DNA of 59,815 nt from an uncultured bacterium (GTDB lineage Bacteria > Zixibacteria > MSB-5A5 > JAABVY01 > JAHJOQ01). Under the pieces are notes generated by a model, which saw nothing but the letters and a program-made list of their open reading frames with translations, did not search any database and was not told the origin of the DNA. Location of the stretch: contig CBDUQR010000014.1 of NCBI GenBank assembly GCA_965369655.1, forward strand, positions 1 to 59,815, written 5' to 3'. Position numbers and translations under genes: made by a program. Within the stretch, counting starts at the first letter, position 1. Every line of letters begins with the position of its first letter. Positions 19,967-44,061 of this stretch are shown here, one piece after another.

Positions 19967-19967
19967 C

Positions 19968-24630: not shown

Positions 24631-24631
24631 A

Positions 24632-24946
24632 ATGGTGACAGCAATGGTGAAGGTGAACCCGGATTTCATAAAGAAGGTGACGACGTCAGGGGAGTTCAAT
24701 GCCACGGCCTGCATGAACTGCGGCATCTGCAGCGCCGTATGCCCCATGGAGATCGAGTTGCTTCCCCGCAAGCTCTTCAGATACGCCCTGCTGGGTCTGG
24801 AGGACAAGATACTCGAACACGAGCAGGTCATCTACCAGTGCCTGTTGTGCAAGATGTGCGAGGTGAACTGCACGGCTGACGTGCACATCGCCGAGAACGT
24901 AAGATTCTTGCGCAGCTACATCAGCAAAGAGGTATTCAAGCTTTAG
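24632..24946 (+). CDS. HdrC-like 4Fe-4S dicluster protein
   Basis: CMNCGICSAVCP and CLLCKMCEVNC. Confidence 0.88.
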   Translation: MVTAMVKVNPDFIKKVTTSGEFNATACMNCGICSAVCPMEIELLPRKLFRYALLGLEDKILEHEQVIYQCLLCKMCEVNCTADVHIAENVRFLRSYISKEVFKL

Positions 24947-24961
24947 CGAAGGAGAAACTTT

Positions 24962-25924: not shown

Positions 25925-26079
25925 GCGTAAGAGAAACCCCGAAAGAAACGAAAGCGCCAAAAACAAGCGTAGTTAATCGTGACATGTGGCGACACCTAGC
26001 CGGTGACCGGAGAGCTGAAGGACAAGATGGCAGTAGGCATCATTGGGTCGGTCGGTTGATCGATGAGGAGGATGAGACC

Positions 26080-27315: not shown

Positions 27316-28670
27316 AATCAGCGGTGCGGATCATGGTGGTGGACGACGAGAAGATCGTCCGCGAATCTCTCTCGGTGTGGCTTCGGAAGTTTGGTTACGA
27401 AGTCGTGCCGGTGGAAGGTGGTCAGGAGGCGCTGGATCTCCTGGATCGCGAGGAGTGGACTATCCTGCTCGTGGATCTGAAGATGCCCCGCATCGATGGA
27501 ATCGAGGTACTCCGCAAGGCGCTGGAGGTGAAACCGGACATTTCGGTCATCATCTTTACGGCGTATGCTACGGTTGAGACAGCGGTTGAGGCGATGAGGG
27601 TCGGTGCCTACGACTACCTTGTCAAGCCGATTGACCCCGACATGCTGACTTTGAAGGTGCAGAAAATCATCGAGAGGCAGGATCTTGAAGATGAAAATAT
27701 CATGCTGCGCGAGAAGATCGATGCCATCTACCAGTTCGACGAGATCATCGGTAACAGCAAATCCATACAGGATGTGCTAGAGATGGTCGGCTCGGTGGCC
27801 GCCAGCGATGCGACGGTGCTTATCACCGGCGAGAGCGGAACCGGCAAGGAGCTGATCGCCCAGGCCATCCACCGCAACAGCGAGCGCCGCTATAAACCGT
27901 TCGTGGCCGTCTCCATAGGGGCGTTGCCCGATACCATGGTAGAGAGTGAGCTGTTCGGACACGAGAAGGGCGCTTTCACCGGGGCAAGCCATGCACACAT
28001 GGGAAGGTTTGAGCTCGCCGACGGCGGCACGCTGTTTCTGGACGAGGTCGGCGATATGAGCCCCAAGGTGCAGGTCGACCTGCTGCGGGTGCTGGAGGAG
28101 AAGGCCTGCTACCGGTTGGGCGGCAATCGCAAGATACACATGGACGTGAGAGTAATCGCCGCAACGAATAAGGTCCTGAAGAAGAGCATTGAGGAAGGCA
28201 GCTTTCGCGAAGACCTCTACTACCGCCTCAACGTCGTCGGAATTCACCTGCCCCCACTGAGGGAGAGAAAAGATGACGTTCTCCTTCTCGCTGAGTACTT
28301 CCTGAAGAAGTTCTGCATGAAGATGAACAAAAAGAAGGAGGAATTCTCCCCCAGGGTGATCGAGATGTTATTGAGACACAAATGGCCCGGCAACATTCGC
28401 GAGTTGGAGAACGCTATTGAGAGAGCCGTAGTCGTGGGCAAGGGGCCGCTGGTTCAACCGCAGGATATGCCCTTCGGCGGCGGTCAGGAGCCCCCCAAAG
28501 AGAAAGCCGCAAAGAGCCTGAGGGAGGCGGAGAAGAAGCACATACTGCAAGTGCTGGACGAGACCGGCTGGAATGTCACCCGCTCCGCCCATCTGCTTGA
28601 GATCGACAGGGCCACGCTGTACAACAAGATCAAGAACTACGGCCTATCGAAGCCCAGGGACCGACGCTGA
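27312..28670 (+). CDS. sigma54-dependent response regulator (NtrC family)
   Basis: Receiver [32 protein letters not shown], Fis HTH. Confidence 0.96.
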
Positions 28671-28686
28671 CAGAGCCGAGCCACTG

Positions 28687-29259
28687 ATGTCGCCGTGCGA
28701 ACCTCCGGGCAAGTTCTGCATCGTCTCCCTTGGAGATACTCCTGACGGTGCAGAGGAGAGAGCTCGCTCCGCCGTACGGTCCCGCTTCAAGCTCAATTGC
28801 GAAATCCTCTCCCCCGAGCCGCGGCCCGAATTTGCCCTGGATGCCTCACGGGATCAATACGACTCCCTGGAAATACTGGACTGGCTGGAGAGCAGGTTTC
28901 CCCGTCCTGACCAGTGGATCCTCGGTATCACTAACGTCGACCTGACCATTCCTGTGCTGACCTTCGTCTTCGGGCAGGCCAGGCTCGGGGGCCGCAGCTC
29001 GGTGATTTCCGCCTTCCGCCTGCGCGAGGAATTCCACGGGCGTCCAGCCGACACGATGGTGTTCCTGTCACGTGTGGAGAAGGAGGCCATCCACGAGGTG
29101 GGGCACATGCTGGGTCTTACCCACTGCTTGGACCGCAACTGTGTGATGTACCCCTCCAACAGCCTGGCTCAGACCGACGTGAAGTCGACCAGGCTCTGTT
29201 CTGAATGTCGCTCCAGCCTTCCTCCTTGGTGCTTGGCAGGGCCATCCGGTCCGGACTGA
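28687..29259 (+). CDS. Archaemetzincin (peptidase M54) Zn metalloprotease
   Basis: TFVFGQA, KEAIHEVGHMLGLTHC...CVM..S...D.K...LC..C. Confidence 0.9.
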   Translation: MSPCEPPGKFCIVSLGDTPDGAEERARSAVRSRFKLNCEILSPEPRPEFALDASRDQYDSLEILDWLESRFPRPDQWILGITNVDLTIPVLTFVFGQARLGGRSSVISAFRLREEFHGRPADTMVFLSRVEKEAIHEVGHMLGLTHCLDRNCVMYPSNSLAQTDVKSTRLCSECRSSLPPWCLAGPSGPD

Positions 29260-29389
29260 GCGGGTGTGTGAAAATCGCGACAGTACCGTAGAAAATTTCG
29301 GCAGTTAGCAATACCCGAACGCTTACAGGGTCACCCCCGTAGGGCTGTTTTCGCTTTGTTTCCAAGCGTTTACCTCTCTCACTGGACAG

Positions 29390-29405
29390 TGGCATGCCAA
29401 TTGCT
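29390..29405 (+). promoter_or_regulatory. sigma54 (-24/-12) promoter
   Basis: TGGCATGCCAATTGCT (GG-N10-GC) 44 nt before ATG 29449; enhancer-like TGTGTGAAAATCGCGACA at 29265..29282. Confidence 0.75.
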
Positions 29406-29448
29406 TGTTTCCATTGCAGATGCAAACGAAAGCCAAGAGGAGAAAGAC

Positions 29449-30750
29449 ATGTCACTGGTGACAATGAAGATCGACGGACACGAGGTCAAGGCAGAAGGTC
29501 GGGAGCCGATTCTGAAGCCAATACGGGATCTGGGCATTGATGTTCCCACCTTGTGCCACATGGACGGTCTGGAACCCTACGGCGTGTGCCGCATGTGCAT
29601 CGTAGAGGTAAGGCGTGGCAAGCGTACCAGGCTGGTGACATCATGTAACTTTCCGGCCGCTGAGGGACTCGAGATACGGACCGATACCGAAGATGTACTT
29701 CAACACCGCAGGCTGATGGCCGAGCTTCTCCTGGCCAGATGTCCCGAGGTCAAGAAGGTACAGGAGATCGCAGCCTCGCTGGGCGTGGAGAAGCCACGTT
29801 TCAAGACCGCCAGCCAGCCGAGCGACTGCGTGCTGTGCGGGTTGTGCGTTCGCGTATGCGACGAGATCGTGGGTGCATCAGCGCTGGGCTTTATCGGTCG
29901 TGGCAACCAGCGGGTGGTCGGGACTCCCTGGTACGTAGACCCCGATTCTTGCATCGCTTGCGGGGCCTGTACCTACGTGTGCCCAACGGGAGCTATGCAG
30001 ATGGAGGCGGTGACCAGGGAGCGGTGGCGGAAGGAACTCGGGGAAGGCCAGCGGCTCTGCCGGTATGCTCGCATGGGACTGGTCTCTCACAAAGTATGTC
30101 CCAACAACTTCGACTGCGCCACTTGCGAGGTAGACCAGCGCCTCTTCGACGAGTTCGGGACACATCCAATCCTGGCCTTAGCGCCCGGTCTACATCGGCA
30201 GCCTAAAAATGTCGGCCATTTCATCCTGATAGAAGACCGCACTTACTTCCAGGGGCATACCTGGGCGAAGATATTGAAAGAGCACACACGTGTGGGTCTG
30301 GACGACTTCGCCCAAAGACTCATCGGAGGCATCTCCAAAGCGGTGTTCAGAGCGGGACCGGGCGACGTGGTGCACCGCGGGGACCCAGCCGTGGACGTGT
30401 CCAGCAACGGGCATCGCGCTACCATGCTCTTCCCGATCCCGGGCAGGATCATCCACATTAATCCCGCCCTGGAGGACAATCCCTCGCTGATTAACGAGGA
30501 CTGCTATGACCGGGGCTGGCTCTACACGATAAAGCCAGTGGACCCTTATAAGGATAAGAGTAGTCTCATCGGCCCGGACGAAGCCGGCCAATGGATACAG
30601 GACGAGTCGGACTGCCTGTTCCGCGTCCTGACCGAATCCAGAAGCGCCGCATTGTCCGACGGTGGTGAGTTGTTACCGAACTTCTCCAGGAATCTTGAGA
30701 AGAAAGACTGGGAGCGGATTACTAAAAGATTCTTTTCAGAGGGCGAATAG
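29449..30750 (+). CDS. HydA/NuoG-N-like [2Fe-2S]+2[4Fe-4S] protein fused to a Cys motif and GcvH-like domain
   Basis: PTLC..GVCRMC..TSC; CVLCGLCVRVC; CIACGACTYVCP; HTWA..RVGLDDFAQ..PIPG..N..CYDRGWL; no H-cluster motifs. Confidence 0.85.
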   Translation: MSLVTMKIDGHEVKAEGREPILKPIRDLGIDVPTLCHMDGLEPYGVCRMCIVEVRRGKRTRLVTSCNFPAAEGLEIRTDTEDVLQHRRLMAELLLARCPEVKKVQEIAASLGVEKPRFKTASQPSDCVLCGLCVRVCDEIVGASALGFIGRGNQRVVGTPWYVDPDSCIACGACTYVCPTGAMQMEAVTRERWRKELGEGQRLCRYARMGLVSHKVCPNNFDCATCEVDQRLFDEFGTHPILALAPGLHRQPKNVGHFILIEDRTYFQGHTWAKILKEHTRVGLDDFAQRLIGGISKAVFRAGPGDVVHRGDPAVDVSSNGHRATMLFPIPGRIIHINPALEDNPSLINEDCYDRGWLYTIKPVDPYKDKSSLIGPDEAGQWIQDESDCLFRVLTESRSAALSDGGELLPNFSRNLEKKDWERITKRFFSEGE

Positions 30751-30775
30751 AGTTAAGCCGCTCAGGAGGTGAGTC

Positions 30776-31720
30776 ATGTCTGAAAAACGAGCGAAGAAAT
30801 CGGAACTGATACCCACATCGGCCAGACAGTGCGTGTGGGTTGATGCGGGTGTCATCTCCTACAAGATCTGCACGCTGAACTACGAGTGCGAGCGCTGTTC
30901 CCTGCACCAGGCACTGGTCGACGGGCCGGTGCTGGTTCAACCGCACGCTTCCCCATCCCCAAACCTGGCGGAGGTCAAGAAGCGACGCGCTGAGTTTGAA
31001 GAGTTCTTCAAGAAACTGCCCGCCTCTGCGCGCAAATGTCACTACATGTTGACAGGGGAAGTTTCCTACAAGTTGTGTATCAACGGGTTCAACTGCGCTA
31101 ATTGCTCTTTTCAGCAGATGATCGAGGATTCGGCCGAGGCGGAGACGGGTTGGGACTTTCCCGTTGATGATTCGCGCTCGATCGAGGGCTTCCGTCTTCC
31201 CCAGGGGATGCACCACCACAGAGGCCACACCTGGGTTCGCGTGGAGCGCGACGGCAATGTTCGCGTGGGCATGGACGATTTCGGGCAGTGGCTACTGGGC
31301 TCCGTCCAGGGCGTGCGGCTGCCGAGCCCCGGCGAGACCATCTTCGAGGGCACACCGGCCTGCGAGATCCGCCTCGATACTGGGCGGATCAGCCCCCTGG
31401 CACCAGTATCCGGACGAATCATCGCAACAAATGAGAGGCTGCTGGAGCAGCCGGCGCTGGTGAACGAGTCGCCATATACCAACGGGTGGCTCCTCATGGT
31501 GAAGCCCTTCGATCTACCGTCCGAGCTAGTGAACCTCCTATACGGAGGAAGGGCCAGAAGATGGATCGAGCAGGAGATTGGACGGGTCAGGGAAAAGGTT
31601 AATGGGAACGGTAGACTGTGGAACATCCATGAACTAGAGAAGGATGCGACCTGGCGGGAAAATCTGATCGACGAGATAGCAGGCGAGTTCCTGCTGGCGA
31701 AGCTGAAGAAGGTAGCATGA
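30776..31720 (+). CDS. GcvH-like protein with two N-terminal Cys motifs
   Basis: HTWVR..VRVGMDDF..APVSG..N..PYTNGWL; lipoyl-Lys absent. Confidence 0.85.
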   Translation: MSEKRAKKSELIPTSARQCVWVDAGVISYKICTLNYECERCSLHQALVDGPVLVQPHASPSPNLAEVKKRRAEFEEFFKKLPASARKCHYMLTGEVSYKLCINGFNCANCSFQQMIEDSAEAETGWDFPVDDSRSIEGFRLPQGMHHHRGHTWVRVERDGNVRVGMDDFGQWLLGSVQGVRLPSPGETIFEGTPACEIRLDTGRISPLAPVSGRIIATNERLLEQPALVNESPYTNGWLLMVKPFDLPSELVNLLYGGRARRWIEQEIGRVREKVNGNGRLWNIHELEKDATWRENLIDEIAGEFLLAKLKKVA

Positions 31721-31755
31721 AGGGGTATCCCCAAAAAAGAGAAAGAGAGAATTAG

Positions 31756-32235
31756 ATGGAAGTACAGGAAGCCAAACTGGACGACATATTAACCCAGTGG
31801 AAGCGTGACAAGAGCAATCTGATCGAGATGCTTCAGGATGTTCAGGAGCACTACCGCCACATCCCATCGCAGATTGCCGGCACACTTGCCGAGGAGCTTG
31901 ATGTGCCCCTGAACCGCATTTTCCACATCGCCACCTTCTACAAGGGATTCTCCCTGGAGCCGCGCGGAAAGTATCCCGTCTGTGTATGCACTGGCACGGC
32001 CTGCCACGTAAAGGGCGGGACGCGCATCCTCGAAAACATCATGCGCAATCTGGGCGTGGAGAAAGAAGGCCAGACGACCGAGGATCAGCTCTTCAGCGTG
32101 GAATCGGTGCGCTGTCTGGGATGCTGCGGACTGGCACCGGTGGTGACCGTCGGTGGAGAAGTGTACGGCAATACCTCTTCGGTGAAAATGAAAAAAATCC
32201 TGGACAAACGTCGAAAGAACGAGCAGGCGCAATAA
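31756..32235 (+). CDS. nuoE: NuoE/HydC-like [2Fe-2S] subunit
   Basis: ATFY, CTGTACHVKG, CLGCCGLAP. Confidence 0.9.
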   Translation: MEVQEAKLDDILTQWKRDKSNLIEMLQDVQEHYRHIPSQIAGTLAEELDVPLNRIFHIATFYKGFSLEPRGKYPVCVCTGTACHVKGGTRILENIMRNLGVEKEGQTTEDQLFSVESVRCLGCCGLAPVVTVGGEVYGNTSSVKMKKILDKRRKNEQAQ

Positions 32236-32256
32236 AATCTTTTATGGAGGCAATCG

Positions 32257-32640
32257 ATGCCCAGACTGAAAATCGAAGATCTCGACAAGATCGTGGAGCA
32301 GCAGAGGAAAACCACATCCCTGAGGGATGGGGCCGGTCGGGTCAAGATCACGGTGCACATGGGTACCTGCGGAATCTCGGCTGGTGCACGGAAAATAATG
32401 GCTGAGGTCATGCGCTGCGTGGAGGAGTCGGGTGCCAGCGACATCATCATTACCACCTCCGGCTGTGCGGGTTTCTGCAGCCGCGAGCCAATGATGACCG
32501 TCGAAGTGATCGAGCAAGCCCCTGTAAAGTACGTAGAGCTTGACAATAAGAAGGTGAGTAAGATTTTTGACGAGCATATCATGAACGGAAATGTCGTCGA
32601 AGATTATGCCCTGGCCATAGGGGGAGAGCAGACGCTATGA
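32257..32640 (+). CDS. Thioredoxin-like (2Fe-2S) ferredoxin (HndB/HydD-like)
   Basis: HMGTCGISAGAR, GCAGFCSREP. Confidence 0.9.
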   Translation: MPRLKIEDLDKIVEQQRKTTSLRDGAGRVKITVHMGTCGISAGARKIMAEVMRCVEESGASDIIITTSGCAGFCSREPMMTVEVIEQAPVKYVELDNKKVSKIFDEHIMNGNVVEDYALAIGGEQTL

Positions 32641-34508
32641 GTACGACACCGAGCAAGAACGTAGAGGGAAAGTCACCTGTCGGCAAGGATCTGGGCGACT
32701 ACCGCATGCATCTTATGCTTTGCGCCGGAACCGGTTGTGTCTCCGGCGGTTCTTACAAAATCAAAGATGCTCTGGAACGCGAGTTGGCAAAACATAAACT
32801 CATCGACGAAGTGGCCGTGGTCATGACCGGATGCAACGGCTTCTGTGCCCAGGGACCAGTCATGGTAGTTCAGCCGGACGAAATCTTTTACCAATTTCTC
32901 AGCGAAAAGGACATTCCCCACCTGGTCGAAGAGCACATGCTCAAGGGCCGGCCGGTCGAGAAGCTCATGTTCACACCACCAGATGAGAAGTCGGTTGTGC
33001 CCAAGATGAGCGAGATTGGCTTTTTCAAAAAGCAGCGACTTCTTGCGCTTCGCAACCGCGGCCTGATTGACCCGGAGGTGATAGAGGAGTACATTGCAAG
33101 GGATGGTTACAAGGCCCTGGCCAAGGTACTCACCGAGATGAAACCCGAGGAGGTCGTCCAGGAGATGATCGCTTCAGGGCTTCGCGGGCGCGGTGGCGGG
33201 GGTTTCCCCACTGGCATCAAGTGGAAGAGTTGCCGCGAGGCGCCCGGAGAGATCAAGTACGTCGTCTGCAATGCGGACGAAGGTGACCCCGGTGCTTACA
33301 TGGACCGCAGCATCATCGAGGGGGACCCTCACTCCGTGCTGGAGGGCATGATCATCGCCGCCTATGCCATTGGGTCCAACAAGGGATATATCTATATCCG
33401 CCATGAGTACCCCCTGGCCCTCGAGCGTTTGAAAAAGGCCATCGCCGACGCGCGCGAGTACGGCATCCTGGGCAAGAACATCTTTGATCAGGGCTTCGAT
33501 TTCGATATCACTATTCACCTTGGAGCCGGCGCTTTCGTATGTGGCGAGTCCACAGCCTTGATGGCATCCATGGAAGGCCGGCCTGGCGAGCCACGCGCCA
33601 AGTACATCCACACCGTGGAGCATGGCCTGTGGGACCAGCCCACCAACCTGAACAATGTAGAGACCTATGCCAACGTGCCCCTGATCATTCTGCGCGGCGT
33701 CGAGTGGTTCACCTCCATCGGCACCGGCGACGTGACCGACAACCCCTGGGGCGGCAGCAAGGGCACCAAGGTCTTCTCCCTGGTGGGTAAGGTCCGGAAC
33801 ACCGGCCTGGTGGAGGTACCCATGGGGATAACCCTGCGGGAGATCATCTTCGACATCGGTGGAGGCGTCCCCAACGGTAAAAAGTTCAAGGCGGTGCAGA
33901 CCGGCGGGCCTTCGGGAGGCGTGATTCCGGAAAGCTTGCTCGACTTGCCGGTGGACTTCGACCAGCTCACCAGGGTGGGTTCGATGATGGGCTCGGGCGG
34001 CATGATCGTAATGGACGAGGACGACTGCATGGTGGACATCGCCCGATACTTCATCGACTTCCTCGTCGATGAATCATGTGGCAAGTGCCTGCCGGGTCGC
34101 GAGGGACTGACGCAAATTAGCAAAATACTTAACGATATCTGCAGAGGTAAGGCCCAAGAGGGAGTCCTTGATCTACTGGAAGAAACCTGCAGTACAGTCG
34201 CAAACTGTTCGCTCTGCGCGCTGGGTGGATCGGCGCCCAACCCTGTGCTGAGTACACTTAGATACTTCCGAGATGAGTACGAGGCTCACGTCCGGGACAA
34301 GAAGTGCCCGGCGGGGTTGTGCAAGGCCCTGATCACCTATTACATCGACGCCGAGAAGTGCAACGGCTGTATGCTATGTGCAAGAGAATGCCCGGAGAAC
34401 GCCATTGAGGGCGAAAAAAAGAAGCCTCACAAGATAAATACCGATCTGTGTATAAAGTGCGGCATCTGTCGAGATGTATGCAACAGGGATGCGGTTATAG
34501 TAGAGTAA
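32637..34508 (+). CDS. nuoF: NuoF/HydB-like flavoprotein (long, bifurcating type)
   Basis: N-terminal CAGTGC..GCNGFC; GLRGRGGGGFP; NADEGDPGAYMDR; GAFVCGE; GGPSGG; C-terminal 2x[4Fe-4S]. Confidence 0.93.
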   Translation: MSTTPSKNVEGKSPVGKDLGDYRMHLMLCAGTGCVSGGSYKIKDALERELAKHKLIDEVAVVMTGCNGFCAQGPVMVVQPDEIFYQFLSEKDIPHLVEEHMLKGRPVEKLMFTPPDEKSVVPKMSEIGFFKKQRLLALRNRGLIDPEVIEEYIARDGYKALAKVLTEMKPEEVVQEMIASGLRGRGGGGFPTGIKWKSCREAPGEIKYVVCNADEGDPGAYMDRSIIEGDPHSVLEGMIIAAYAIGSNKGYIYIRHEYPLALERLKKAIADAREYGILGKNIFDQGFDFDITIHLGAGAFVCGESTALMASMEGRPGEPRAKYIHTVEHGLWDQPTNLNNVETYANVPLIILRGVEWFTSIGTGDVTDNPWGGSKGTKVFSLVGKVRNTGLVEVPMGITLREIIFDIGGGVPNGKKFKAVQTGGPSGGVIPESLLDLPVDFDQLTRVGSMMGSGGMIVMDEDDCMVDIARYFIDFLVDESCGKCLPGREGLTQISKILNDICRGKAQEGVLDLLEETCSTVANCSLCALGGSAPNPVLSTLRYFRDEYEAHVRDKKCPAGLCKALITYYIDAEKCNGCMLCARECPENAIEGEKKKPHKINTDLCIKCGICRDVCNRDAVIVE

Positions 34509-34634
34509 AGCTGTTTGTGCAGTCCCGGTGCCAACCCGATCGGTCTCTGCGTCAGTTTTGCCTATGATCTTTACGCGAAAAGACTTTATTTGTCGGGTCA
34601 GGAAAACGTCCTAATTATGGGATAGTGTGTTGTT

Positions 34635-36557
34635 ATGAGCTGGAAGAGGACAATATGGTTCCGGCTGAGCGTAGGCTTTATTGCGATCATCCTGGTGACC
34701 AACGTTGTGCTGTTTCTAATCACCCTGTTTGGCGTCAGTGAAATCGTCGTTGAAGAGGTGCAGACCCGCGTACGCATGGACCTCAACTCCGCTTGCAAGG
34801 TATTCGAAGAGCACGTAGACGACATTTGTCTCCTGCTCCGGGCAACCTCAGCGCGCCGTAGTGTCCCCGTTCCGCTTGAAAGCTGGGACAGGGATGATCT
34901 GCACAAACTTTTGGGGAGCATCTGGCAAGCAGGAGAGTTGGACATGCTCTTCCTGTTGGACAAGGATGGCCGGGTCGTCTACCGCAAACACAATCCAGGA
35001 CAGATGGGAGATGATATCTCGCATAACCCGATAGTCGCCCGGGCTTTGAGGAAGAAAAAATGTGTCCGGGGCACGGCGGTCGTGACGTACGAGGAGTTGG
35101 GAAGAGAATCTGCCGATATACTGCACAGGGCGTCTATCGAGATAAAGCCCACCGAGGCCGACCAGTCTGGAGAGAGAAAAATTCACCGCGATGGAATGGT
35201 CATTGGAGCGGCAGTTCCCCTGGTGGACCTGCGAAGAGACGGGGAGATTGTGGGATTTCTGTACGGAGCAAAACTTCTGAACCGGAGTTCCGAGATTGTT
35301 GATGAGATCAAAGAGGATCTGTACGAGGACGAGAGCTACCAAGGCATGGACATCGGAGCTGTTACGATTTTCCAGGGAGGTGTCCGTATTTCCACCAGCA
35401 TAATGAGAGAGGACGGCTCGCGGGCCGTTGGCACCCGGGTGAGTACTGTGGTTCATGAGAAAGTGCTGGAAATGGGGAAGACATGGGCCGAACGGGCCTT
35501 CGTGGTCGATGATTGGTATATTACCGCCTATGCGCCGATCCGTGACCCCGAAGACAGGGTCATTGGAATCCTGGGAGTTGGCATACAGGAAGAGCCGTTC
35601 ATCCACAACCAGAGGATCGCAGCATGGATCTTTCTTGGCGTGGTGACTTTCACGACCATGATCAGCTTAGTACTGCTGATCATCGCGACCAGAATCGTCC
35701 TACGTCCCATCGGGCGGATCATCAAGATGTCCGACAAGGTCGTGGCGGGCGACCTGTCGGCCCGGGTGAATATGCGGCCTCCCGGTGAGATGGGCCTGCT
35801 CTGCCTAGCGATCGATCAGATGGCCGACGCTGTAGCGCAAAGAGAGGAAGCACTTGTGCAGGCAACTCGTCGACAGATCGGACAGAGTGAGAAGATGGCA
35901 TCAATAGGCCGAATGTCGGCAGGTATCGCCCATGAGATCAACAACCCGCTAACCGGACTGCTGACCTTCGAGCACCTGCTGAAGAGTGAGGAAGGTCTCA
36001 GCGACAAGGGAAAGGAATACCTCGAAATCATGTACAACGAGACCTCTCGGATGCGTGAGATCGTCCGGGGACTGCTGAATTTTGCCCGTGAGTCCTCCCT
36101 GGAGATGAAACCCCTGGGTGTCAACGAGGTGATTCGGCAATGGTTTAAGCTCCTGCGCAGCCAGAAAGAGTTCAAGGATATAACCATCGAAGAGAAACTC
36201 GCCGAGGGTCTGTCCAGGGTAAATGGTGATACCAATCAATTGCAGCAGGTGTTCGTCAATCTCTCTCTTAACGCCTGCGAAGCCATGCCTGATGGTGGCA
36301 TACTGTCGATTTCCACCTCGGAGGGAGACGGAAAAGTGCTGATCTCAATAGCGGATACCGGCTGTGGTATCAAGGGAGAGCACCTCGGAATGATATTCGA
36401 ACCGTTCTTTACGACCAAATCGGTTGGAAAGGGAACTGGTCTCGGCCTGAGTGTGAGCTATGGCATAATCCGCAAGCATGGTGGAACCATAGAGGTGGAG
36501 AGCCAGGAGGGCGAGGGTACCACCTTTACAGTTACCCTGCCCGTGGTGTCCGGATGA
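34635..36557 (+). CDS. Cache/HAMP membrane sensor histidine kinase
   Basis: Two TM helices around a Cache-like domain ([17 protein letters not shown]), HAMP, AHEINNP, G boxes. Confidence 0.92.
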
Positions 36558-36604
36558 TCGTCTCGCTGTCGAACGCCGGATAGCTGACGAAGGAGATCTG
36601 AACA

Positions 36605-37942
36605 ATGCGCAAGAAATTCAGAATACTTGTTGTGGATGACGAGCTTTCCATCCGCATCTCCCTGGGAGATTTGCTGAAACGCGATGGATATCAGGTGGAG
36701 GTGGCCGAGAGCGCCGAGTCAGCGCTGGAGATGTTGAAGACGCAGTCGTTCGATTTGCTGATAGTGGACGTCAAGATGCCCGGTATGGACGGCTTGGAGA
36801 TGCTGGAGCGGGTCAAGGAGGACGATCCCGACACCACCGTGGTTGTGATGACCGCTTATGGCTCTATCGATTCTGCGGTCCATGCGATGCAGCTCGGCGC
36901 CATCGACTACGTAGCCAAGCCATTCGACCCGCTAAAGATCGGGACACTCGTCAAGCAGATTTATAAGAACGAGCTAATGCAGCGCGAGCATAAGCTGCTC
37001 AAACATCAAGTGGAAGTATGCGGCAGCTATGGACCGATAATCGGCCAGTCGCCGGCCATGCTGAAGTTGTTTGAACTCATCGAGGACGTATCCTCCACAG
37101 ACTCGGTGGTGCTAATATCGGGCGAGAGTGGAACCGGTAAGGAGGTGCTGGCACGCACGATCCACGAAAAGAGTCCCCGGTCGAACGGGCTGTTCGTGGG
37201 TGTCAATTTCGGTGCTTTCACAGAATCCCTCTTGGAAAGCGAGCTGTTCGGGTATGAAAAGGGAGCCTTCACAGGAGCTACTACGTCCAAGAAGGGTCTG
37301 TTGGAGATCGCCTCCGGAGGGACATTCTTTTTAGACGAGATTGGAAACGCAAGTCCAAAGATGCAGATCGATCTGCTCAGGGTGCTCCAGGAGCGGAAGT
37401 TCCGGAGGGTCGGGGGACTTAGGGATGAGGAGGTGGACTTCAGGGTGCTCGCGGCCACTAATCGTGACCTGGAAAAGGCTATAGAGGAGGGAAGCTTCCG
37501 ACAGGACCTCTATTATCGGCTAAATGTCGTGCAGATTCACATACCACCATTGCGGGAACGCAGGGAGGACATTCCTGCTCTGGCTAAGCATTTCCTGGAG
37601 ATGCTGCGCGTGCGCTTGAACAAGAAGACCAGTTTGATTTCCCCCGAGGCCATGCAGTGTCTCGTCAACTACGACTGGCCCGGCAATGTCCGCGAGCTGG
37701 AAAACGCCATCGAACGAGCACTGGTAGTAGGCAAGCAGAAACGGATCATGCCGGAGGACCTGCCTATCATGCTGCAGGAACCCAGCGAAGGGCCGGCCGA
37801 TGAGTCTCTCGATTCCTGGGAGAGGGACTACATCGCCAGGAAGCTCGATCAGTACGAGTGGAACATAAGCCGGACGGCTCAGGCGCTGAAGATCGACAGG
37901 GGAACATTGTACGCCAAAATCGATAAATACGGGCTGTCTTGA
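36605..37942 (+). CDS. sigma54-dependent response regulator (NtrC family)
   Basis: [35 protein letters not shown]. Confidence 0.96.
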   Translation: MRKKFRILVVDDELSIRISLGDLLKRDGYQVEVAESAESALEMLKTQSFDLLIVDVKMPGMDGLEMLERVKEDDPDTTVVVMTAYGSIDSAVHAMQLGAIDYVAKPFDPLKIGTLVKQIYKNELMQREHKLLKHQVEVCGSYGPIIGQSPAMLKLFELIEDVSSTDSVVLISGESGTGKEVLARTIHEKSPRSNGLFVGVNFGAFTESLLESELFGYEKGAFTGATTSKKGLLEIASGGTFFLDEIGNASPKMQIDLLRVLQERKFRRVGGLRDEEVDFRVLAATNRDLEKAIEEGSFRQDLYYRLNVVQIHIPPLRERREDIPALAKHFLEMLRVRLNKKTSLISPEAMQCLVNYDWPGNVRELENAIERALVVGKQKRIMPEDLPIMLQEPSEGPADESLDSWERDYIARKLDQYEWNISRTAQALKIDRGTLYAKIDKYGLS

Positions 37943-37967
37943 GAGCAGCAAGCAGGAGTTAACGGTC

Positions 37968-38516
37968 ATGCCCCCCGGGGTAATAGAGATCGTGCCCCTA
38001 TACATCACGGACAAGAGACTGATGTCTGCCTTAGCCGCGGAGATCACGCGGATATTTCCATTCCCGTGCAGGGTTGGTGCCGCCGAGAGGCTGCCGGCTG
38101 GAGTCCTTGACGAAACGAGAGGGCAATATCATGCCACCCGGATCCTCGAGCACCTGGCTGCCTCCGACCGGACTTCCTTCCGGCTTTTGGGAGTAACAAA
38201 CCTGGATATTTTCACGCCGATCTTGCGTTACATATTCGGTGAGGCGATGCTCGAAGGGAGAGCTGCCCTGGTATCGACGTATCGGCTCAGCATCGCACCA
38301 CCTGGAGGTGTTCCCCCATGCAATCGCTCCGTCTTTGTCAGCCGCGTTCTTAAGGAAGGTATCCACGAGCTAGGCCATACCTTTGGCCTCACCCACTGTG
38401 ATGATCCTACCTGTGTGATGGCTGCCTCGCTTGACTTGACACACATCGACGCAAAGTCCACGCAGCTATGCTACTACTGCAGGATCATGCTGAAAGACGA
38501 GTTGGAGAGGACCTGA
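37968..38516 (+). CDS. Archaemetzincin (peptidase M54) Zn metalloprotease
   Basis: YIFGEA, KEGIHELGHTFGLTHC..CVM..S..IDAK...LC..C. Confidence 0.9.
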   Translation: MPPGVIEIVPLYITDKRLMSALAAEITRIFPFPCRVGAAERLPAGVLDETRGQYHATRILEHLAASDRTSFRLLGVTNLDIFTPILRYIFGEAMLEGRAALVSTYRLSIAPPGGVPPCNRSVFVSRVLKEGIHELGHTFGLTHCDDPTCVMAASLDLTHIDAKSTQLCYYCRIMLKDELERT

Positions 38517-38544
38517 ATACCTCAATGATACGGCATTACACATT

Positions 38545-40368
38545 TTAGCCTCTAAGAAACTTGCGCAGCACTTTGGACCAACGAACACCGGAGATGCCGG
38601 CCAGGGCATCGTGGGCGAGCGTGGCGCCGTCCGCGGCGGTTGCAATCCTGTCCTGAAACATTTTGCTCAGCCGAACCACTTCGCTCCTCTGCCAGTTGTG
38701 GGCGTTCTCACTGAACATAAGCTTAGTGATATTGTCCTTGGATACCTCGGGACGAATCGTAAGCAGCCAACCATCGTCGTACGGTTGAGCCGAAAGAACT
38801 CTTGGTGTATCGACGACCGACTGGTTGACCACAATTACCTCGCCATCCATCGGGGAGCACACCTCTACCGACTCGCCGTTGCGGATCAGGCGCAGCGCCG
38901 GCTTTCCCTGCCGCAGTTTCTCGCCCGGCTTGGGCATCTCGACGGTATCAACGTTGCCGATCAAGTGGGCAGCCAGATCGTCGATCCCGACGCGGACAGA
39001 ATCGTCCTTTTCGGAGCGCACCCAGGAATGTCCACGATAATAGAAAAGGTTAGAGGGCATCTCGCAGCCGAGCAGCGCCGGATCCAACTCCTCTTCTTCC
39101 TCTGGTAGCTCTGCGTACGCAAGAGCCTTGAACTGGTCGGCATCACGCACGAGGTTGTCCGCACCTATGACAGCCAGCAGCGAAGCGGGGTCGGCACGCA
39201 TGTCACCCAGCTTCTTGAACTGTCCCTGGAAAGAACGCAATACCGCTTTTGAGATCAATGTGCGTTCACTGGGCGTCAGAACCACGCCGGAAGCCACAAT
39301 TCCGGTAAGTATCGGTTGCGCACTCGCTATGTCCAGAGTGCCTGTGTCGATCATGCGCAGCATCTCGTCTATAAGCACTCGACCTGCGTACAATATTCCA
39401 TCCTCTGGGACGATTTTAAGTACGCGACCAATACCCACAGCTGCCGCCAACTCGGAAGGAGTGACCAACAATCCGTTGTACACTTTACCGAGCAGCCCGC
39501 CGGCGAAGCTGATCAGTGTTGCCGCGCGCTCAACCGTCTCGTCAGTTAGACTAACAGACATATATGTGTGGGACTGGAGGATCCGCTGAACGATGAGAGC
39601 CATCTGTGCCATGGTCATCGAGAAGTAACGAGATGTTGCGATGGCATCGTGCAACTCCTTGAGCACGTTGATGTCAAAGGCCGAGATTACATCGAGGATG
39701 GCTAGCCCCTGTATGGCCCGAAGAGCATCCCACCGCTCGTCCCGGGTCCGTTCCTCGGAGACCGAGTTCAACAGACCGTGGGGCAGTAGCGCTTCCTTTA
39801 ACATCGACTCGGCGAATGCCCAAAGATCAAGCAAGTCGAGGCGGTCGAGGAATGAGGCCGACACTACCAATGCGAACTGCTCCTCCATCGTATGCAGACC
39901 CAGATCGTCTGGGGTGAGCTTTTCTTCCGCGGAGATTTTTCCGAGGTTGCGGAGTTCAAACAGCCGGCTCAACATATCCACGTGTAGGCCGTTCCGGCGA
40001 CTTATTTGCTGGATCAGAGAGGCGTTGGTGCCAATAGACAGGCGCCCGATCCCCATTATGGTCAGCACCCGTGATGCGGCGGCGTTCGTGCGAGACCAAT
40101 TGGCCATGCACGGACCAGCGAATGGACAAGGTCGTCCCGGGACCGCGCAGGCATTAACAAAACACTGGTCGAAAAAGTCCTTGCTGAAAAATAATTTTTG
40201 CTTGTGCGAGGATATCTTGGTCAGGGCAGTGTCCACTGGACATCCTGCACAGTCATCGGGACGAGACTCGCACATCTGCGAGGACACCACACCGGATGAT
40301 TGCCAAATACAACTACCCTTCCTCCTTCTACCCTCGATCTTCACCGCCTTGGAATCTGCTTCTTTCAT
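38545..40368 (-). CDS. Cys-motif + helical domain + C-terminal GcvH-like protein
   Basis: N-terminal CIW...G.....MC......C..C; C-terminal HSWVR..VRVGIDD..SPMDG..N..PYDDGWL; no lipoyl-Lys. Confidence 0.8.
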   Translation of the reverse strand: MKEADSKAVKIEGRRRKGSCIWQSSGVVSSQMCESRPDDCAGCPVDTALTKISSHKQKLFFSKDFFDQCFVNACAVPGRPCPFAGPCMANWSRTNAAASRVLTIMGIGRLSIGTNASLIQQISRRNGLHVDMLSRLFELRNLGKISAEEKLTPDDLGLHTMEEQFALVVSASFLDRLDLLDLWAFAESMLKEALLPHGLLNSVSEERTRDERWDALRAIQGLAILDVISAFDINVLKELHDAIATSRYFSMTMAQMALIVQRILQSHTYMSVSLTDETVERAATLISFAGGLLGKVYNGLLVTPSELAAAVGIGRVLKIVPEDGILYAGRVLIDEMLRMIDTGTLDIASAQPILTGIVASGVVLTPSERTLISKAVLRSFQGQFKKLGDMRADPASLLAVIGADNLVRDADQFKALAYAELPEEEEELDPALLGCEMPSNLFYYRGHSWVRSEKDDSVRVGIDDLAAHLIGNVDTVEMPKPGEKLRQGKPALRLIRNGESVEVCSPMDGEVIVVNQSVVDTPRVLSAQPYDDGWLLTIRPEVSKDNITKLMFSENAHNWQRSEVVRLSKMFQDRIATAADGATLAHDALAGISGVRWSKVLRKFLRG

Positions 40369-40448
40369 GGCTACTTCCTTTCTCGGTATCCTTTCAGGAT
40401 TTCCAAAGCTTTGTGCCTTGGGCTTCCCATACTGTCACTCCCATTTTT

Positions 40449-40464
40449 AGCAATTTCCGGGCCA
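40449..40464 (-). promoter_or_regulatory. sigma54 (-24/-12) promoter of 38545..40368
   Basis: Minus strand TGGCCCGGAAATTGCT (GG-N10-GC); palindrome TGTGGGAAAACGCCACA at 40662..40678. Confidence 0.7.
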
Positions 40465-40798
40465 ACCAATGGTCGATGGATATTTACCGGTGTAACTGTT
40501 TGAACCCCTTTGCCTAATGAAACCGGGCGTCAACAGGGTTCAGATTGGACGCTGGCACCTGCGGGCGTAGACTGGTGGATTCCTCCACAGCTTCCGCCAA
40601 CTGGGAAGACCGGGAATGGCTGCTGTGTCCCTAAGCCATTGTCCACACAGCGAAATCAGATTGTGGGAAAACGCCACACTTCGAGAAATACACTTGCCTT
40701 TTTATGCTCGACAAATTACGTTCAAGAATAGTTTCATAGTCGAAGGCTATACCGGGTTGGTCCTGGCGCCAGCTTGACAGAAGGATACGTGACCTGAC

Positions 40799-41149
40799 AT
40801 GACGCTGAGAGAGCTTGCAAATCTTCTGGAAGCGGAGGTGATCTCCGGCGAACAGCATCTGGATGAAGAATTTGAATGCGCCGGTGCGTCGGATCTCATG
40901 AGTGACGTCCTGGCATTCGGTGAGCCGGGAATCGTCCTGTTGACCGGATTGGCAAATGCCCAGTCCATACGGACCGCCGACGTAATTGAAGCTAAGGCCA
41001 TCGTCTATGTACGCGGCAAGAAGCCCAACAAAGAGGGAGTCACCCTGGCAAAGAAGAGAGACATTCCCATATTGTCGACGAGATTCTTCATGTACAAGGC
41101 GTGTGGGCTGCTTTACAGCCGAAAGGTAAGCGGAGTAGGAAATCAATAG
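40799..41149 (+). CDS. DRTGG-domain protein
   Basis: ASDLMSDVLAF, LLTGL.N.QSIRTA, VRGK.P. Confidence 0.85.
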   Translation: MTLRELANLLEAEVISGEQHLDEEFECAGASDLMSDVLAFGEPGIVLLTGLANAQSIRTADVIEAKAIVYVRGKKPNKEGVTLAKKRDIPILSTRFFMYKACGLLYSRKVSGVGNQ

Positions 41150-41165
41150 TGAGTCGAACGGTACA

Positions 41166-41612
41166 ATGACTTCTCGTTACGATCTTTCACATGTTTTTGA
41201 AATCAAGGGAAGGAATTTCTCCAAGGCCGGCTCCGTGTCAATCGACATCAAGGAGATCCTCCGGGAGCTCGGCATCGATCCGGTCATCGTCCGGCGTGCG
41301 GCCATCGCCGCATACGAGGCCGAGATAAACGTTGTGATGTACGCCGATAAAGGTGAGATGGTTCTCAGGCTGAATCCCAAGGTGATCCGGATCACGTTGG
41401 AGGACGAAGGGCCGGGTATCGAGGACATCGAGATGGCCATGCAGGAAGGTTACTCCACCGCCACTGATGAGATACGGGAGATGGGGTTCGGCGCCGGCAT
41501 GGGCCTACCCAACATAAAGAAGAACGCAGACGTGTTCGAGTTGAAGTCCACGGTCGGGAAGGGCACTTCGTACAACATCGTCATCTATCTGAATCCGACG
41601 GGGAAAACATGA
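41166..41612 (+). CDS. Anti-sigma-factor-type Ser/Thr kinase (HATPase)
   Basis: YEAEINVV, DEGPGI, GYSTA..REMGFGAGMGLPN. Confidence 0.9.
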   Translation: MTSRYDLSHVFEIKGRNFSKAGSVSIDIKEILRELGIDPVIVRRAAIAAYEAEINVVMYADKGEMVLRLNPKVIRITLEDEGPGIEDIEMAMQEGYSTATDEIREMGFGAGMGLPNIKKNADVFELKSTVGKGTSYNIVIYLNPTGKT

Positions 41613-42982
41613 GCCGGTACTTTCACTCCGTCAGCGTCGATGCGGACAAATGTGATGGCCGGATGAGATGCTTGCGGGTCTGTCCCACTCAGGCCATCCG
41701 GATCCGGAACGGAAAGGCCGTCATCCTGGAAGAGAAATGTATCGATTGCGGAGAGTGCATCACGGCCTGTCCGAATGAAGCCATCATGGCATTGACCGAT
41801 CCCATCGGTGAACTAAACAGGTTCAAGTACACGGTGGCCATCCCTTCCCCGGCGCTCTACGCCCAGTTTGGCAGATCTATCCTGCCGGACAAGATTCTGG
41901 CTGGCTTGAAGAAGATCGGCTTCGACGATGCGTATGATCTGGCTATCACCTGTGGGGATACGAGCCTGGCTATAGAGCATTTCCTGGATGAGTACAGCGG
42001 TCCCAAGCCGCTCATCTCCAATTCCTGCCCCTCCGTCGTAAGTCTTGTCCAAGTGAAATATCCCCAACTGGTCGATCATATCATTCCCATCAAGCTTCCC
42101 AAAAGGCTCGCCGCAAAGGAGATCAAGGAGAGAAAATCGAAAGAGCTTGGACTCAAGCCGGACGAGATCGGGACGTTCTACATCACGCCCTGCCCCGTCA
42201 AGATGATTGCCATCAAGCAGCCTCCTTCCGAAGAAGAATGCTATCTGGATGGAGCCATCTCCATAGCCGACATTTACGGCCCGCTGCTATCGGTGCTGGA
42301 GAGCGAGGACAAGGGTAGCTACCGCAAGAGCCTGGAAAGCATATGCATCCTCGGCATCGGATGGGCGGTGGCTGGCGGAATGCACCGCACCCAGGGACTG
42401 AAAAATGTCCTCGATGTCTCCGGGATTGCGGACATCATTACGACCTTCAATGATATCGAACGGGGCAAGCTACAGAACATCGACCTCGTCGTGGCATATA
42501 CTTGTCCACAGGGTTGCGTGGGGGGATCACTGACGGTGGAGAACCGCTACATCTCCTATAACAAGATCCTCCGGCTGCTCGAGACGCTGGAACAGGAGAA
42601 CATAGAGGCCTGCCGAGATAAGCGGGATATCCGCGAACGCTATCGTCAGAAATACTTCCACATGCAGCAAAAATACGAGCCCCGTCCCATCCAGGCGCTC
42701 GACGAGGATCTTGGCAAGGCCATCAAGAAACGGCAAAAAAAGCAGAGGATATACGACTCTCTGCCCAAGGTAGACTGCGGTATCTGCGGTGCCCCGACGT
42801 GCTTAACCTTCGCGGAGGATGTGGTCAAGGGGGATGCGCAACTGTCCAACTGCATCTTCAACGTTCCCAGTAGATTCAAGGAACTGACCGGTGAGCTGTC
42901 CAGGCTTATGGACGCCTTCGGTTACATGGGCGAAGACAAGGGGCGGAAGCCGAGAAAAGAAAAACGGAGGAAGAAATCATGA
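41609..42982 (+). CDS. Atypical (group D/sensory-type) [FeFe]-hydrogenase-like Fe-S protein
   Basis: N-terminal 2x[4Fe-4S]; SNSCPS, TPCPVK, TCPQGCVGG; C-terminal LPKVDCGICGAPTC..FA. Confidence 0.82.
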   Translation: MSRYFHSVSVDADKCDGRMRCLRVCPTQAIRIRNGKAVILEEKCIDCGECITACPNEAIMALTDPIGELNRFKYTVAIPSPALYAQFGRSILPDKILAGLKKIGFDDAYDLAITCGDTSLAIEHFLDEYSGPKPLISNSCPSVVSLVQVKYPQLVDHIIPIKLPKRLAAKEIKERKSKELGLKPDEIGTFYITPCPVKMIAIKQPPSEEECYLDGAISIADIYGPLLSVLESEDKGSYRKSLESICILGIGWAVAGGMHRTQGLKNVLDVSGIADIITTFNDIERGKLQNIDLVVAYTCPQGCVGGSLTVENRYISYNKILRLLETLEQENIEACRDKRDIRERYRQKYFHMQQKYEPRPIQALDEDLGKAIKKRQKKQRIYDSLPKVDCGICGAPTCLTFAEDVVKGDAQLSNCIFNVPSRFKELTGELSRLMDAFGYMGEDKGRKPRKEKRRKKS

Positions 42983-43317
42983 CCTTGACAGAGGTTGTCG
43001 AAAAACTCGGACTCCGCGTCCTGACGTCTAAAGGGGTCGGCGACGCTAAGGTGACCGGCGGTTACACCTGCGATCTTCTCAGCGATGTGATGGGCAACAG
43101 CAAGACAGGGAATCTCTGGATCACCATGCAGACGCACCAGAACGTCCTGGCGGTCGCCAGGCTCAAGGACCTTACAGGAATCGTCATCGTGAACGGTCGC
43201 CGGCCTGACGAAGAAACCACCCGGAAAGCCGACGAGGAGTACGTTACGATCCTGGGCACGGACGAGTCGGCTTTCAGCATCTCTGGACAGCTTTATCAGT
43301 TGCTGGAAAAACCGTGA
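42979..43317 (+). CDS. DRTGG-domain protein
   Basis: GGYTCDLLSDVMG..WITMQTHQNV.AVA. Confidence 0.85.
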   Translation: MTLTEVVEKLGLRVLTSKGVGDAKVTGGYTCDLLSDVMGNSKTGNLWITMQTHQNVLAVARLKDLTGIVIVNGRRPDEETTRKADEEYVTILGTDESAFSISGQLYQLLEKP

Positions 43318-43323
43318 TCCACG

Positions 43324-44055: not shown

Positions 44056-44061
44056 GAAGTA

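Follow-up and report, generated by a model that had tools for sequence, protein, structure and literature searches.

In the H protein of the glycine cleavage system (GcvH), the lipoyl-lysine sits in a hairpin reading ESVKA. That the GcvH fold can also serve an Hdr-like system is illustrated by LbpA; according to the part of the report available to us, the lysine is retained by all 95 LbpA proteins, which require dedicated lipoate ligases (PMC6067878). Here, we analyzed a stretch of 59,815 nucleotides from an uncultured Zixibacteria bacterium (positions 1 to 59,815 of contig CBDUQR010000014.1, assembly GCA_965369655.1; contig 14 in the following), which we refer to as the window. It encodes three proteins, named P1, P2 and P3, in which a GcvH-like domain without lipoyl-lysine is combined with one or two copies of a four-cysteine module, Cys4 (C-x12-C-x5/6-C-x2-C). 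These proteins are members of a large family, as yet without a name, whose proteins have a lysine-less GcvH fold and whose genes recur beside a histidine kinase, a sigma-54-type response regulator and an archaemetzincin. The three proteins are built as follows:

29449-30750, plus strand: P1, with a HoxU/NuoG-N-terminal-like Fe-S part (residues 1-190), a Cys4 module (residues 204-226, at 30058-30126), a lysine-less GcvH domain (30241-30603) and a helical C-extension
30776-31720, plus strand: P2, with Cys4 modules at 30830-30898 and 31037-31105, a lysine-less GcvH domain (31220-31564) and a C-extension
38545-40368, minus strand: P3, with a Cys4 module (40240-40311), a second cysteine cluster, an all-helical middle domain, a lysine-less GcvH domain (38695-39045) and a C-extension

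All three proteins match the Pfam model GCV_H (PF01597) above its cut-off, P1 with residues 265-385 (E 3e-18), P2 with residues 149-262 (E 9.3e-21) and P3 with residues 442-558 (E 3.7e-20). The AlphaFold model of P3 aligned with solved GcvH structures at target-normalised TM scores of 0.72-0.83 (Foldseek), and the model confidence (pLDDT) of the GcvH domain was about 87-96 in P2, including the C-terminal helices, and 74-89 in P3. At the place of the ESVKA hairpin, however, the sequences read VDVSSNGHR in P1, CEIRLDTGR in P2 and LRLIRNGES in P3. In the alignment with E. coli GcvH (3a8i_E, E 2e-18), the column of the lipoyl-lysine holds a glycine in P2. When aligned with the true GcvH of the same genome, which is encoded on contig 61, reaches the full score (168.6 bits) and reads EAVKAV, none of the three proteins shows a lysine at the lipoyl column or beside it. 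The scores with the gcvH equivalog model (TIGR00527/NF002270) were 55.1, 70.6 and 74.8 bits for the three proteins, compared with a cut-off of 115.85, and those with NF045810 (GcvH_rel_desulf) were 39.2, 26.7 and 35.0 bits, compared with a cut-off of 150.

Neither a lipoate ligase nor a GcvT gene is present in the window; BPL_LplA_LipB matches were found on contigs 23, 1 and 37, a GCV_T match on contig 45 and the true gcvH on contig 61. The three genes on contig 14 are thus linked neither to gcvT nor to a lipoate ligase. Beyond P1-P3 and the true GcvH, we found no further GcvH-like protein in this genome and hence no Hmc-type module of the kind described below. A preliminary description of this DNA had reported three GcvH-like proteins without the lipoyl-lysine and the lack of lipoate ligase and gcvT genes in the window, and had named an alignment to GcvH as a check; all of this holds. 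Altogether, the comparison of sequences gives good support to the view that P1-P3 are lipoate-independent and neither glycine-cleavage nor lipoate proteins. P2 has, in addition, a ninth cysteine (Cys196, at 31361-31363) on the strand preceding the former lipoyl hairpin, which is kept in 27 of 33 P2-type sequences and is absent in P1, P3 and the other subfamilies.

The loss of the lysine extends far beyond the window. In an alignment of true GcvH with 81 members of the family, the position of the lysine is occupied by glycine (24), aspartate (14), glutamate (12), alanine (8), serine (7) or other residues, and by lysine in only two, which makes the loss a family-wide property. No conserved residue takes the place of the lysine in the hairpin of these members. 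Chance open reading frames or decayed GcvH copies are ruled out as an explanation by the full-length conservation of the proteins, at 52-93% identity, in many metagenomes.

We then turned to the Cys4 module. A search of all six frames of the window with the motif as a regular expression gave five matches, namely the four copies listed above and one in a non-coding frame at 18107, and a profile built from the four copies retrieved only these four from the 2.99-Mb genome (E<=3.8e-21; next best match E 0.43). At least one copy is present in 43 of 46 relatives of P2, the remaining three being fragments of 183-212 residues, and in 28 of 34 relatives of P3, the remaining six (352-520 residues) being shorter than the query. 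The four copies noted in the preliminary description are thus found where it had placed them, and they are conserved in homologues. The four cysteines and one glycine are invariant in all 18 aligned copies from the window and 14 other genomes; within the P2 family, the second module is invariant in 33/33 and the first in 31/33 sequences, and the module of P3 in 25/25. P3 carries a second cluster of cysteines (C69, C74, C81 and C87; C-x4-C-x6-C-x5-C), which is likewise invariant in 25/25 homologues. This invariance makes the Cys4 module compatible with a metal or Fe-S site.

No model in Pfam or NCBIfam matches the Cys4 module, and its profile gave no match at E<=10 among the sequences of the PDB. 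The modules themselves were modeled by AlphaFold in P2 and P3 with pLDDT values below 50, which is uninformative either way with respect to a bound metal. The middle domain of P3 (approximately residues 130-380) was modeled as all-helical with pLDDT 70-90; Foldseek returned no significant match for it, only weak ones (E>=0.014) to alpha/alpha toroids, the GcvH domain being the only part of P3 with significant matches. In the ESM Atlas, residues 60-430 of P3 had no usable match, and residues 8-125 of P2 gave only leads named "hypothetical protein" at 0.79-0.80.

A search of 1.84 billion cluster representatives with a 41-position profile of the module yielded 1059 representatives at E<=1e-3, 608 of them at E<=1e-10. 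To survey fusions, we considered the 82 proteins of at least 200 residues among the 150 best of the 1059 matches. Of these 82, 59 carry a GCV_H domain, 11 a Response_reg receiver, five TPR_2 and one HisKA/HATPase domains. The number of Cys4 copies per protein ranges from one to four. The tandem of P2, consisting of an A-type "C-x-W" copy, a linker and "LP...R-x-C-R/H-Y", is the same unit that is found behind receiver domains. Three metagenome proteins (P0085, P0100 and P0044, one of them named as WOR-3) showed an extra N-terminal cysteine segment, "MKCPFLEE" or "MRCPFLEE", ahead of two Cys4 modules; no family could be placed for it.

Conversely, the lysine-less GcvH domain occurs without the motif. 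Examples are membrane-anchored forms (as in locus L041), receiver-fused forms (locus L128) and proteins of genomes that lack the motif altogether. In ten more distant genomes of the phylum, the lysine-less GcvH proteins have an N-terminal hydrophobic anchor as read from their sequences, and one such anchor is weakly HmcD-like (E 2.6e-5, below the cut-off). All forms end in a helical C-extension with the conserved pattern W-x3-[IV]-x3-F-[FL]. In L128, a Bacteroidota record, two genes (755-1915 and 2-679) encode a receiver fused directly to a lysine-less GcvH-like domain with C-extension, and these fusions occupy the place of the membrane-anchored GcvH-like proteins of other phyla. The Cys4 module is a real, mobile domain, and Cys4 and the GcvH fold are independent modules. 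Of the earlier proposal of a lipoate-independent analogue in which the cysteine motif replaces lipoate, the first half is supported, given a lysine in only two of 81 members, while the second half is not, as the motif and the GcvH domain each occur alone.

Besides P1-P3, the window contains the following features of this region:

19526-19966, plus strand: MvhD-like protein (Pfam FlpD, 1.1e-27)
19968-22679, plus strand: HdrA fused to a GltD/NfnB-like NAD(P)H part ("HdrL"-like), 903 residues (Pyr_redox_2 7e-54, with Fer4_20)
22676-24391, plus strand: second HdrA-like Fe-S flavoprotein
24962-25924, plus strand: HdrB-like protein with CCG domain (CCG 2.6e-12)
25918-27315, plus strand: histidine kinase 1, with PAS, HisKA and HATPase domains (Pfam)
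27312-28670, plus strand: sigma-54-type (NtrC-like) response regulator 1, its receiver, AAA+ and helix-turn-helix features read from the sequence
28687-29259, plus strand: archaemetzincin 1 (NF033823, 162.1 bits, cut-off 145)
29390-29404, plus strand: sigma-54 -24/-12 promoter-like site TGGCATGCCAATTGC, 45 nucleotides 5' of the P1 start codon
31756-32235, plus strand: NuoE/HoxE-like [2Fe-2S] subunit (PF01257, 6.2e-46)
32257-32640, plus strand: small thioredoxin-like [2Fe-2S] ferredoxin (PF01257 6.9e-4, below cut-off; NF041612 1.2e-9)
32637-34508, plus strand: NuoF/HoxF-like NADH- and FMN-binding subunit with extra ferredoxin domains (Complex1_51K 1.6e-45; NADH_4Fe-4S 3.8e-30)
34635-36557, plus strand: histidine kinase 2, with Cache, HAMP, HisKA and HATPase domains (Pfam)
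36605-37942, plus strand: sigma-54-type response regulator 2, assigned by reading of its sequence and homology to cassette regulators
37968-38516, plus strand: archaemetzincin 2 (NF033823, 145.5 bits, cut-off 145)
40450-40464, minus strand: sigma-54 -24/-12 promoter-like site TGGCCCGGAAATTGC, about 80 nucleotides 5' of the P3 start codon

The genes form two parallel units. Unit 1 comprises kinase 1, regulator 1, archaemetzincin 1, P1, P2 and the NuoE-like, ferredoxin and NuoF-like genes, and unit 2 comprises kinase 2, regulator 2 and archaemetzincin 2, with P3 converging from the minus strand. The Hdr-like set (19526-25924, plus strand) lies directly upstream of this cassette, and the same adjacency is present in the relatives L052 and L054.

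We analyzed how far this arrangement is conserved by searching one-genome-per-species contigs with a degenerate DNA pattern for the motif. This gave at least 120 stretches, of which 80 listed loci, each of up to 8 kb and not centred on the gene, were analyzed. According to their record titles they come from about ten phyla, including Desulfobacterota ("Deltaproteobacteria"), Bacteroidota, Ignavibacteriota, Calditrichota, Planctomycetota, Gemmatimonadota, Acidobacteriota, Eisenbacteria and others. Metagenome bins titled Desulfosarcina, Desulfotignum, Desulfonema and Desulfobacula are among the sources of the matching stretches. A GcvH-like domain is encoded in 79/80 of these loci, a histidine kinase in 48/80, an archaemetzincin in 46/80 and a sigma-54-type regulator in 44/80, with at least one of the latter three in 60/80. 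The redox genes are more variable: HmcB- or HmcC-like genes occur in 29/80 loci, HdrL/HdrA-like genes in 11/80 and NuoE/NuoF in 2/80. Regulator 1 of the window shares 48-55% identity with cassette regulators from other phyla. As a general trend, the constant part of the cassette is the kinase, the sigma-54 regulator and the archaemetzincin, whereas the adjoining redox module varies between HmcB/C-like, HdrL-like and NuoE/NuoF with HoxU fusion. These constant neighbours, rather than sHdr genes or lipoate ligases, speak against an LbpA-like carrier with the motif as a built-in substitute for the lipoyl arm, as had been envisaged in the preliminary description; the retention of the lysine in all 95 LbpA proteins speaks against it as well (PMC6067878).

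Within the phylum of the window, the motif is carried by 26 of 201 sampled genomes, five of which have the same gene set as the window. All ten of the more distant Zixibacteria loci encode one or two anchored GcvH-like proteins, sometimes a cytochrome c, then HmcB (441.7 bits, cut-off 420) and an HmcC-like protein, followed by a Cys-GcvH-like protein. The kinase, sigma-54 regulator and archaemetzincin come next in five of the ten, in part in two, and in none of the fetched stretch in three. Another arrangement is found in the metagenome loci L176-L181, where a gene for a receiver with two Cys4 modules follows a kinase and a sigma-54 regulator. The kinase of L176 has a HydS-like [FeFe]-hydrogenase domain as sensor and is preceded by an rpoN gene, and on the other side of the receiver-2xCys4 gene lie the large and small subunits of an [NiFe]-hydrogenase, MvhD and HdrL. 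Cys4 thus recurs in a setting in which Hdr/Mvh-type enzymes are under hydrogen- or redox-responsive control. In the Hmc-type cassettes, the kinases (L041, 6489-8102; L128, 3007-4677) showed an N-terminal CxxCH haem-c motif ahead of HAMP when their sequences were read, unlike the kinases of the window with their PAS and Cache sensors. In the main texts of the literature searched, we found no description of lysine-less GcvH-like proteins with the motif or of the cassette, while supplementary tables may list such genes as "GcvH"; the cassette is widespread and apparently undescribed.

A further set of genes (40799-44607) is kept beside the cassette in the relatives L050 and L053 at 83-94% identity. 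It comprises a DRTGG-like gene (40799-41149), a small HATPase protein (41166-41612) and a HydS-like protein (41609-42982) that combines Fe_hyd_lg_C with two ferredoxin motifs and ends in an "FeS" domain, followed up to 44607 by a second DRTGG-like gene, a PHP-domain protein and another HATPase protein. Both DRTGG-like frames lack a Pfam match at E<=1e-4 and owe their label to sequence reading alone. A few kb downstream of the cassette, an open reading frame of 404 residues (45618-46832) contains two stretches of Sulf_transp (PF04143, YeeE/YedE-like sulfur transport; E 7.5e-46).

Next, we looked at the promoters. The site TGGCATGCCAATTGC before P1 is followed by a GAGGAG ribosome-binding site, and its GGCA and TTGC boxes are invariant in 5/5 relatives; for the P3 site TGGCCCGGAAATTGC, the GGC and TTGC boxes are conserved in 3/3 relatives. 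Across the window, the sigma-54 pattern was found eight times, compared with 3.7 expected, and 4 of 100 shuffled sequences reached eight, which is weak on its own. This count gains weight from the position of the two sites, the conservation of their boxes and the count in the family: 30 of 81 upstream windows of 360 nucleotides from the 80 listed loci contained a sigma-54 site with at most one mismatch, with a background of 0.026 per window, mostly at 50-105 nucleotides from the start codon. A scan of 25500-41200 for sigma-70 promoters and terminators gave nothing above chance. As judged from these sites, the GcvH-like genes are very probably targets of the adjoining enhancer-binding regulators.

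Both archaemetzincins score above the cut-off of their family model and contain HExxHxxGxxxH and four cysteines; H136, E137, H140 and H146 (HExxH...H) together with the four cysteines are invariant in 19/19 aligned homologues. To our knowledge, no function has been established for archaemetzincins. Two or more archaemetzincin matches are present in 24 of the 26 motif-positive genomes of the phylum and in 12 of the 175 others, related genomes not being independent in this comparison. In three of five examined motif-negative genomes with an extra archaemetzincin, the extra gene and a lysine-less GcvH-like gene that lacks the motif are 3.4-5.4 kb apart. A predicted complex of archaemetzincin 1, P2 and four Zn obtained a score of 0.00 and a mark of 0.32, which allows no verdict in either direction. 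The longest frame of archaemetzincin 1 opens at 28573 and overlaps the end of regulator 1 by 98 nucleotides (28573-28670); its putative start is the methionine at 28687 just past the regulator stop, giving 190 residues that match the family model from its start.

A link of the family to a redox module is seen in P1. Residues 1-189 align to positions 1-213 of the 238 positions of HoxU (NF005745, E 1.8e-38), with a 2Fe-2S and a 4Fe-4S domain in the order of HoxU (Fer2_4, 4.8e-15; Fer4, 2.9e-11). The score of 132.3 bits is below the equivalog cut-off of 333, the hydrogenase partner HoxYH is absent, and the operon contains only NuoE, a ferredoxin and NuoF.

One possible explanation for these findings, which we favor while holding it tentatively, is that P1-P3 are signal-controlled accessory subunits of electron-transfer modules, with Cys4 as a metal centre and the GcvH fold as a docking domain. 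As part of the same tentative reading, the family members would be the local output of the conserved signalling cassette of kinase, sigma-54 regulator and archaemetzincin. Kinases 1 and 2 would perceive a redox-related cue and phosphorylate their own regulators, which could open the sigma-54 promoters seen before P1 and P3; P1 and P2 would in this way be switched on together with NuoE, ferredoxin and NuoF, and P3 separately. As homology and operon structure suggest, the HoxU-like half of P1 may join NuoE, the small ferredoxin and NuoF into an NADH-linked Fe-S wire. Each Cys4 module, of which one terminates the P1 wire and two belong to P2, would be a small, flexibly tethered unit that binds metal and passes on or reports the redox state. 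The metal would most likely be Fe-S and possibly Zn; Fe-S is favored because one Cys4 stands in line after the HoxU clusters and because the family is confined to redox contexts of the anaerobe type. The cofactor-free GcvH fold, together with the helical C-extension, would dock these modules to a partner, probably the Hdr-like enzymes or signalling proteins. In other lineages, the same proteins may be wired to HmcB/C-like membrane modules or to HdrL, and some family members may be switched by a fused receiver domain instead of transcription.

Several observations sit less well with accessory subunits of electron-transfer modules. In one histidine kinase (P0116), the Cys4 module is found at the place of the sensor domain, which fits the sensing of an input rather than an output, and basic tails flank Cys4, which resembles the zinc fingers that bind nucleic acids. 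A sigma-54 unit with just two Cys-GcvH-like genes and no redox enzyme in it is found in many Desulfobacterota loci, and it would suit a regulator or carrier that acts on its own no less than an accessory subunit. An archaemetzincin is present in 196 of the 201 genomes of the phylum, making its mere presence non-specific, and it is only the extra copies that follow the cassette. Among the sequencing runs listed as containing the locus, there are DNA runs only and no RNA runs.

Part of this evidence would also suit a purely regulatory role, which we regard as less probable and yet as the most serious alternative: Cys4 would be a zinc-finger-like interaction or DNA-binding module and the GcvH fold regulatory, so that P2, P3 and their relatives would act as modulators of the kinase, of the sigma-54 activator or of RNA polymerase. 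No electrons would then be carried, and the redox linkage would reflect what the system regulates. Besides the basic tails, the fusions with receivers (11/82) and a kinase (1/82), the receiver-GcvH fusions of L128, the prevalence of signalling genes among the most constant neighbours and the receiver-2xCys4 gene of L176, which follows rpoN, the HydS-like kinase and the sigma-54 regulator, are in agreement with such a role. However, P1 itself includes a HoxU-type Fe-S protein by covalent fusion and is encoded in an operon with NuoE and NuoF, and anchored GcvH-like proteins, one with the weakly HmcD-like helix (E 2.6e-5, below cut-off), are encoded inside HmcB/C-like operons. The HoxU and anchor fusions argue for physical membership in redox complexes.

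We consider it unlikely that these proteins are analogues of LbpA or DsrC that lack lipoate and in which a dithiol/disulfide or persulfide of the cysteines swings on a tether to the active sites of Hdr-like, CCG-domain or Hmc-like proteins. Four invariant cysteines at fixed spacing in a core-less cytoplasmic unit of about 25 residues are seen more typically in metal sites than as free thiols, which weighs against a thiol carrier. The motif, furthermore, occurs without a GcvH domain on the receiver and kinase proteins and the GcvH domain without the motif, and neither sulfurtransferase nor lipoate-ligase genes were found among the window proteins checked. Such a carrier would, on the other hand, fit the Hdr-like genes with a CCG protein directly upstream, HdrL/HdrA in 11 of the 80 listed loci and in the receiver-2xCys4 loci, the position of the Cys-GcvH-like gene after HmcB- and HmcC-like genes in Hmc-type operons, and the placement of Cys4 on long linkers of low model confidence. 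As far as the available part of the report goes, LbpA provides a precedent for a GcvH fold that serves an Hdr-like system (PMC6067878). Improbable, too, is a reading of the Cys4-GcvH-fold proteins as protein-borne redox carriers, that is, as a thiol/disulfide or Fe-S partner of Hdr-like (HdrL, HdrA-MvhD), Hmc-like and NuoEF-type modules and a lipoate-free counterpart of LbpA and DsrC, with the sigma-54 system setting their supply and the archaemetzincin their turnover or maturation.

Least of all do we expect a protease switch, in which the archaemetzincin would cleave the GcvH-like proteins in their tether or C-extension and proteolysis instead of electron transfer would be the regulated step: it would account for the archaemetzincin in 46/80 listed loci with its invariant HExxH...H (19/19), the extra matches in 24/26 motif-positive compared with 12/175 other genomes and the nearby extra copy in 3/5 motif-negative genomes, but no cleavage site was identified, and no archaemetzincin is present in the fetched flanks of the receiver-2xCys4 loci.

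Whichever role applies, these findings matter for annotation. Public records name members of the family "glycine cleavage system protein H", "response regulator" or "hypothetical", and a family present in many anaerobic phyla fails the defining test of the GcvH annotation; systematic mis-annotation of this kind inflates the glycine-cleavage capacity inferred for metagenome-assembled genomes. For the Hdr-like, HdrL, Hmc-like and soluble NuoEF-type modules of anaerobic bacteria, it is still largely a matter of debate what their physiological partners are and how they are controlled, and the family is genetically wired to these modules. The family thereby supplies concrete candidates, open to test, for the sensing or routing of reducing power in anaerobes, and a first genomic handle on the role of bacterial archaemetzincins.

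In comparison with known systems, P1-P3 share with GcvH the fold and sequence homology, including H-x-W, P-x-x-G and G-W positions common to the three, but differ in the missing lipoyl-lysine, in scores below the equivalog cut-off, in the Cys4 modules, the helical C-extension and the HoxU part of P1, and in being unlinked to gcvT or a lipoate ligase. With the HoxEFU diaphorase, the NuoEFG N-module and HydBC, the locus shares a HoxU-like half, that of P1, in an operon with NuoE- and NuoF-like genes; here, in contrast, no hydrogenase or quinone module follows, and the HoxU part ends in Cys4 and a GcvH fold. The Hmc complex of sulfate reducers (HmcABCDEF) is approached by relatives in which a Cys-GcvH-like gene is part of an operon with HmcB, HmcC-like and HmcA-like cytochrome c genes. 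HmcE and HmcF complete the hmc operon of Desulfovibrio, with the CCG protein HmcF at its end, whereas no HmcE or HmcF homologue was found in the operon of L041, and GcvH-like genes flank the HmcB- and HmcC-like genes. Fe-S sensor motifs such as those of WhiB-like proteins and FNR also place four cysteines in a short stretch of signalling proteins of anaerobes; the spacing C-x12-C-x5/6-C-x2-C is different, and the module has no sequence similarity to a solved protein at E<=10.

Two further systems use a GcvH-like protein outside glycine metabolism. LbpA of the sulfur-oxidising sHdr system resembles the present locus in standing beside Hdr-like genes, as far as can be taken from the accessible part of its report (PMC6067878). 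Here, the MvhD-, HdrA-, HdrL- and CCG-type genes upstream of P1 may or may not be of the sulfur-oxidising type. The lysine is absent, the window lacks a ligase gene, and what recurs as partner is a two-component system together with an archaemetzincin. In Firmicutes, GcvH-L is a GcvH paralogue outside glycine cleavage that is co-encoded with a hydrolase in an oxidative-stress operon with SirTM and a macrodomain protein, and it is lipoylated and ADP-ribosylated, according to the available part of PMC4518038. Foldseek paired its structure (5a35) with the P3 model at E 7e-4, while neither a sirtuin nor a macrodomain was found among the 26 open reading frames of the window tested. The family as a whole falls outside GcvH, LbpA and NF045810, and its Cys4 module is without a model or a solved relative. 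What this analysis adds is the Cys4 domain with its other fusions, the sigma-54 promoters, the link to an archaemetzincin and the NuoEF/HoxU variant.

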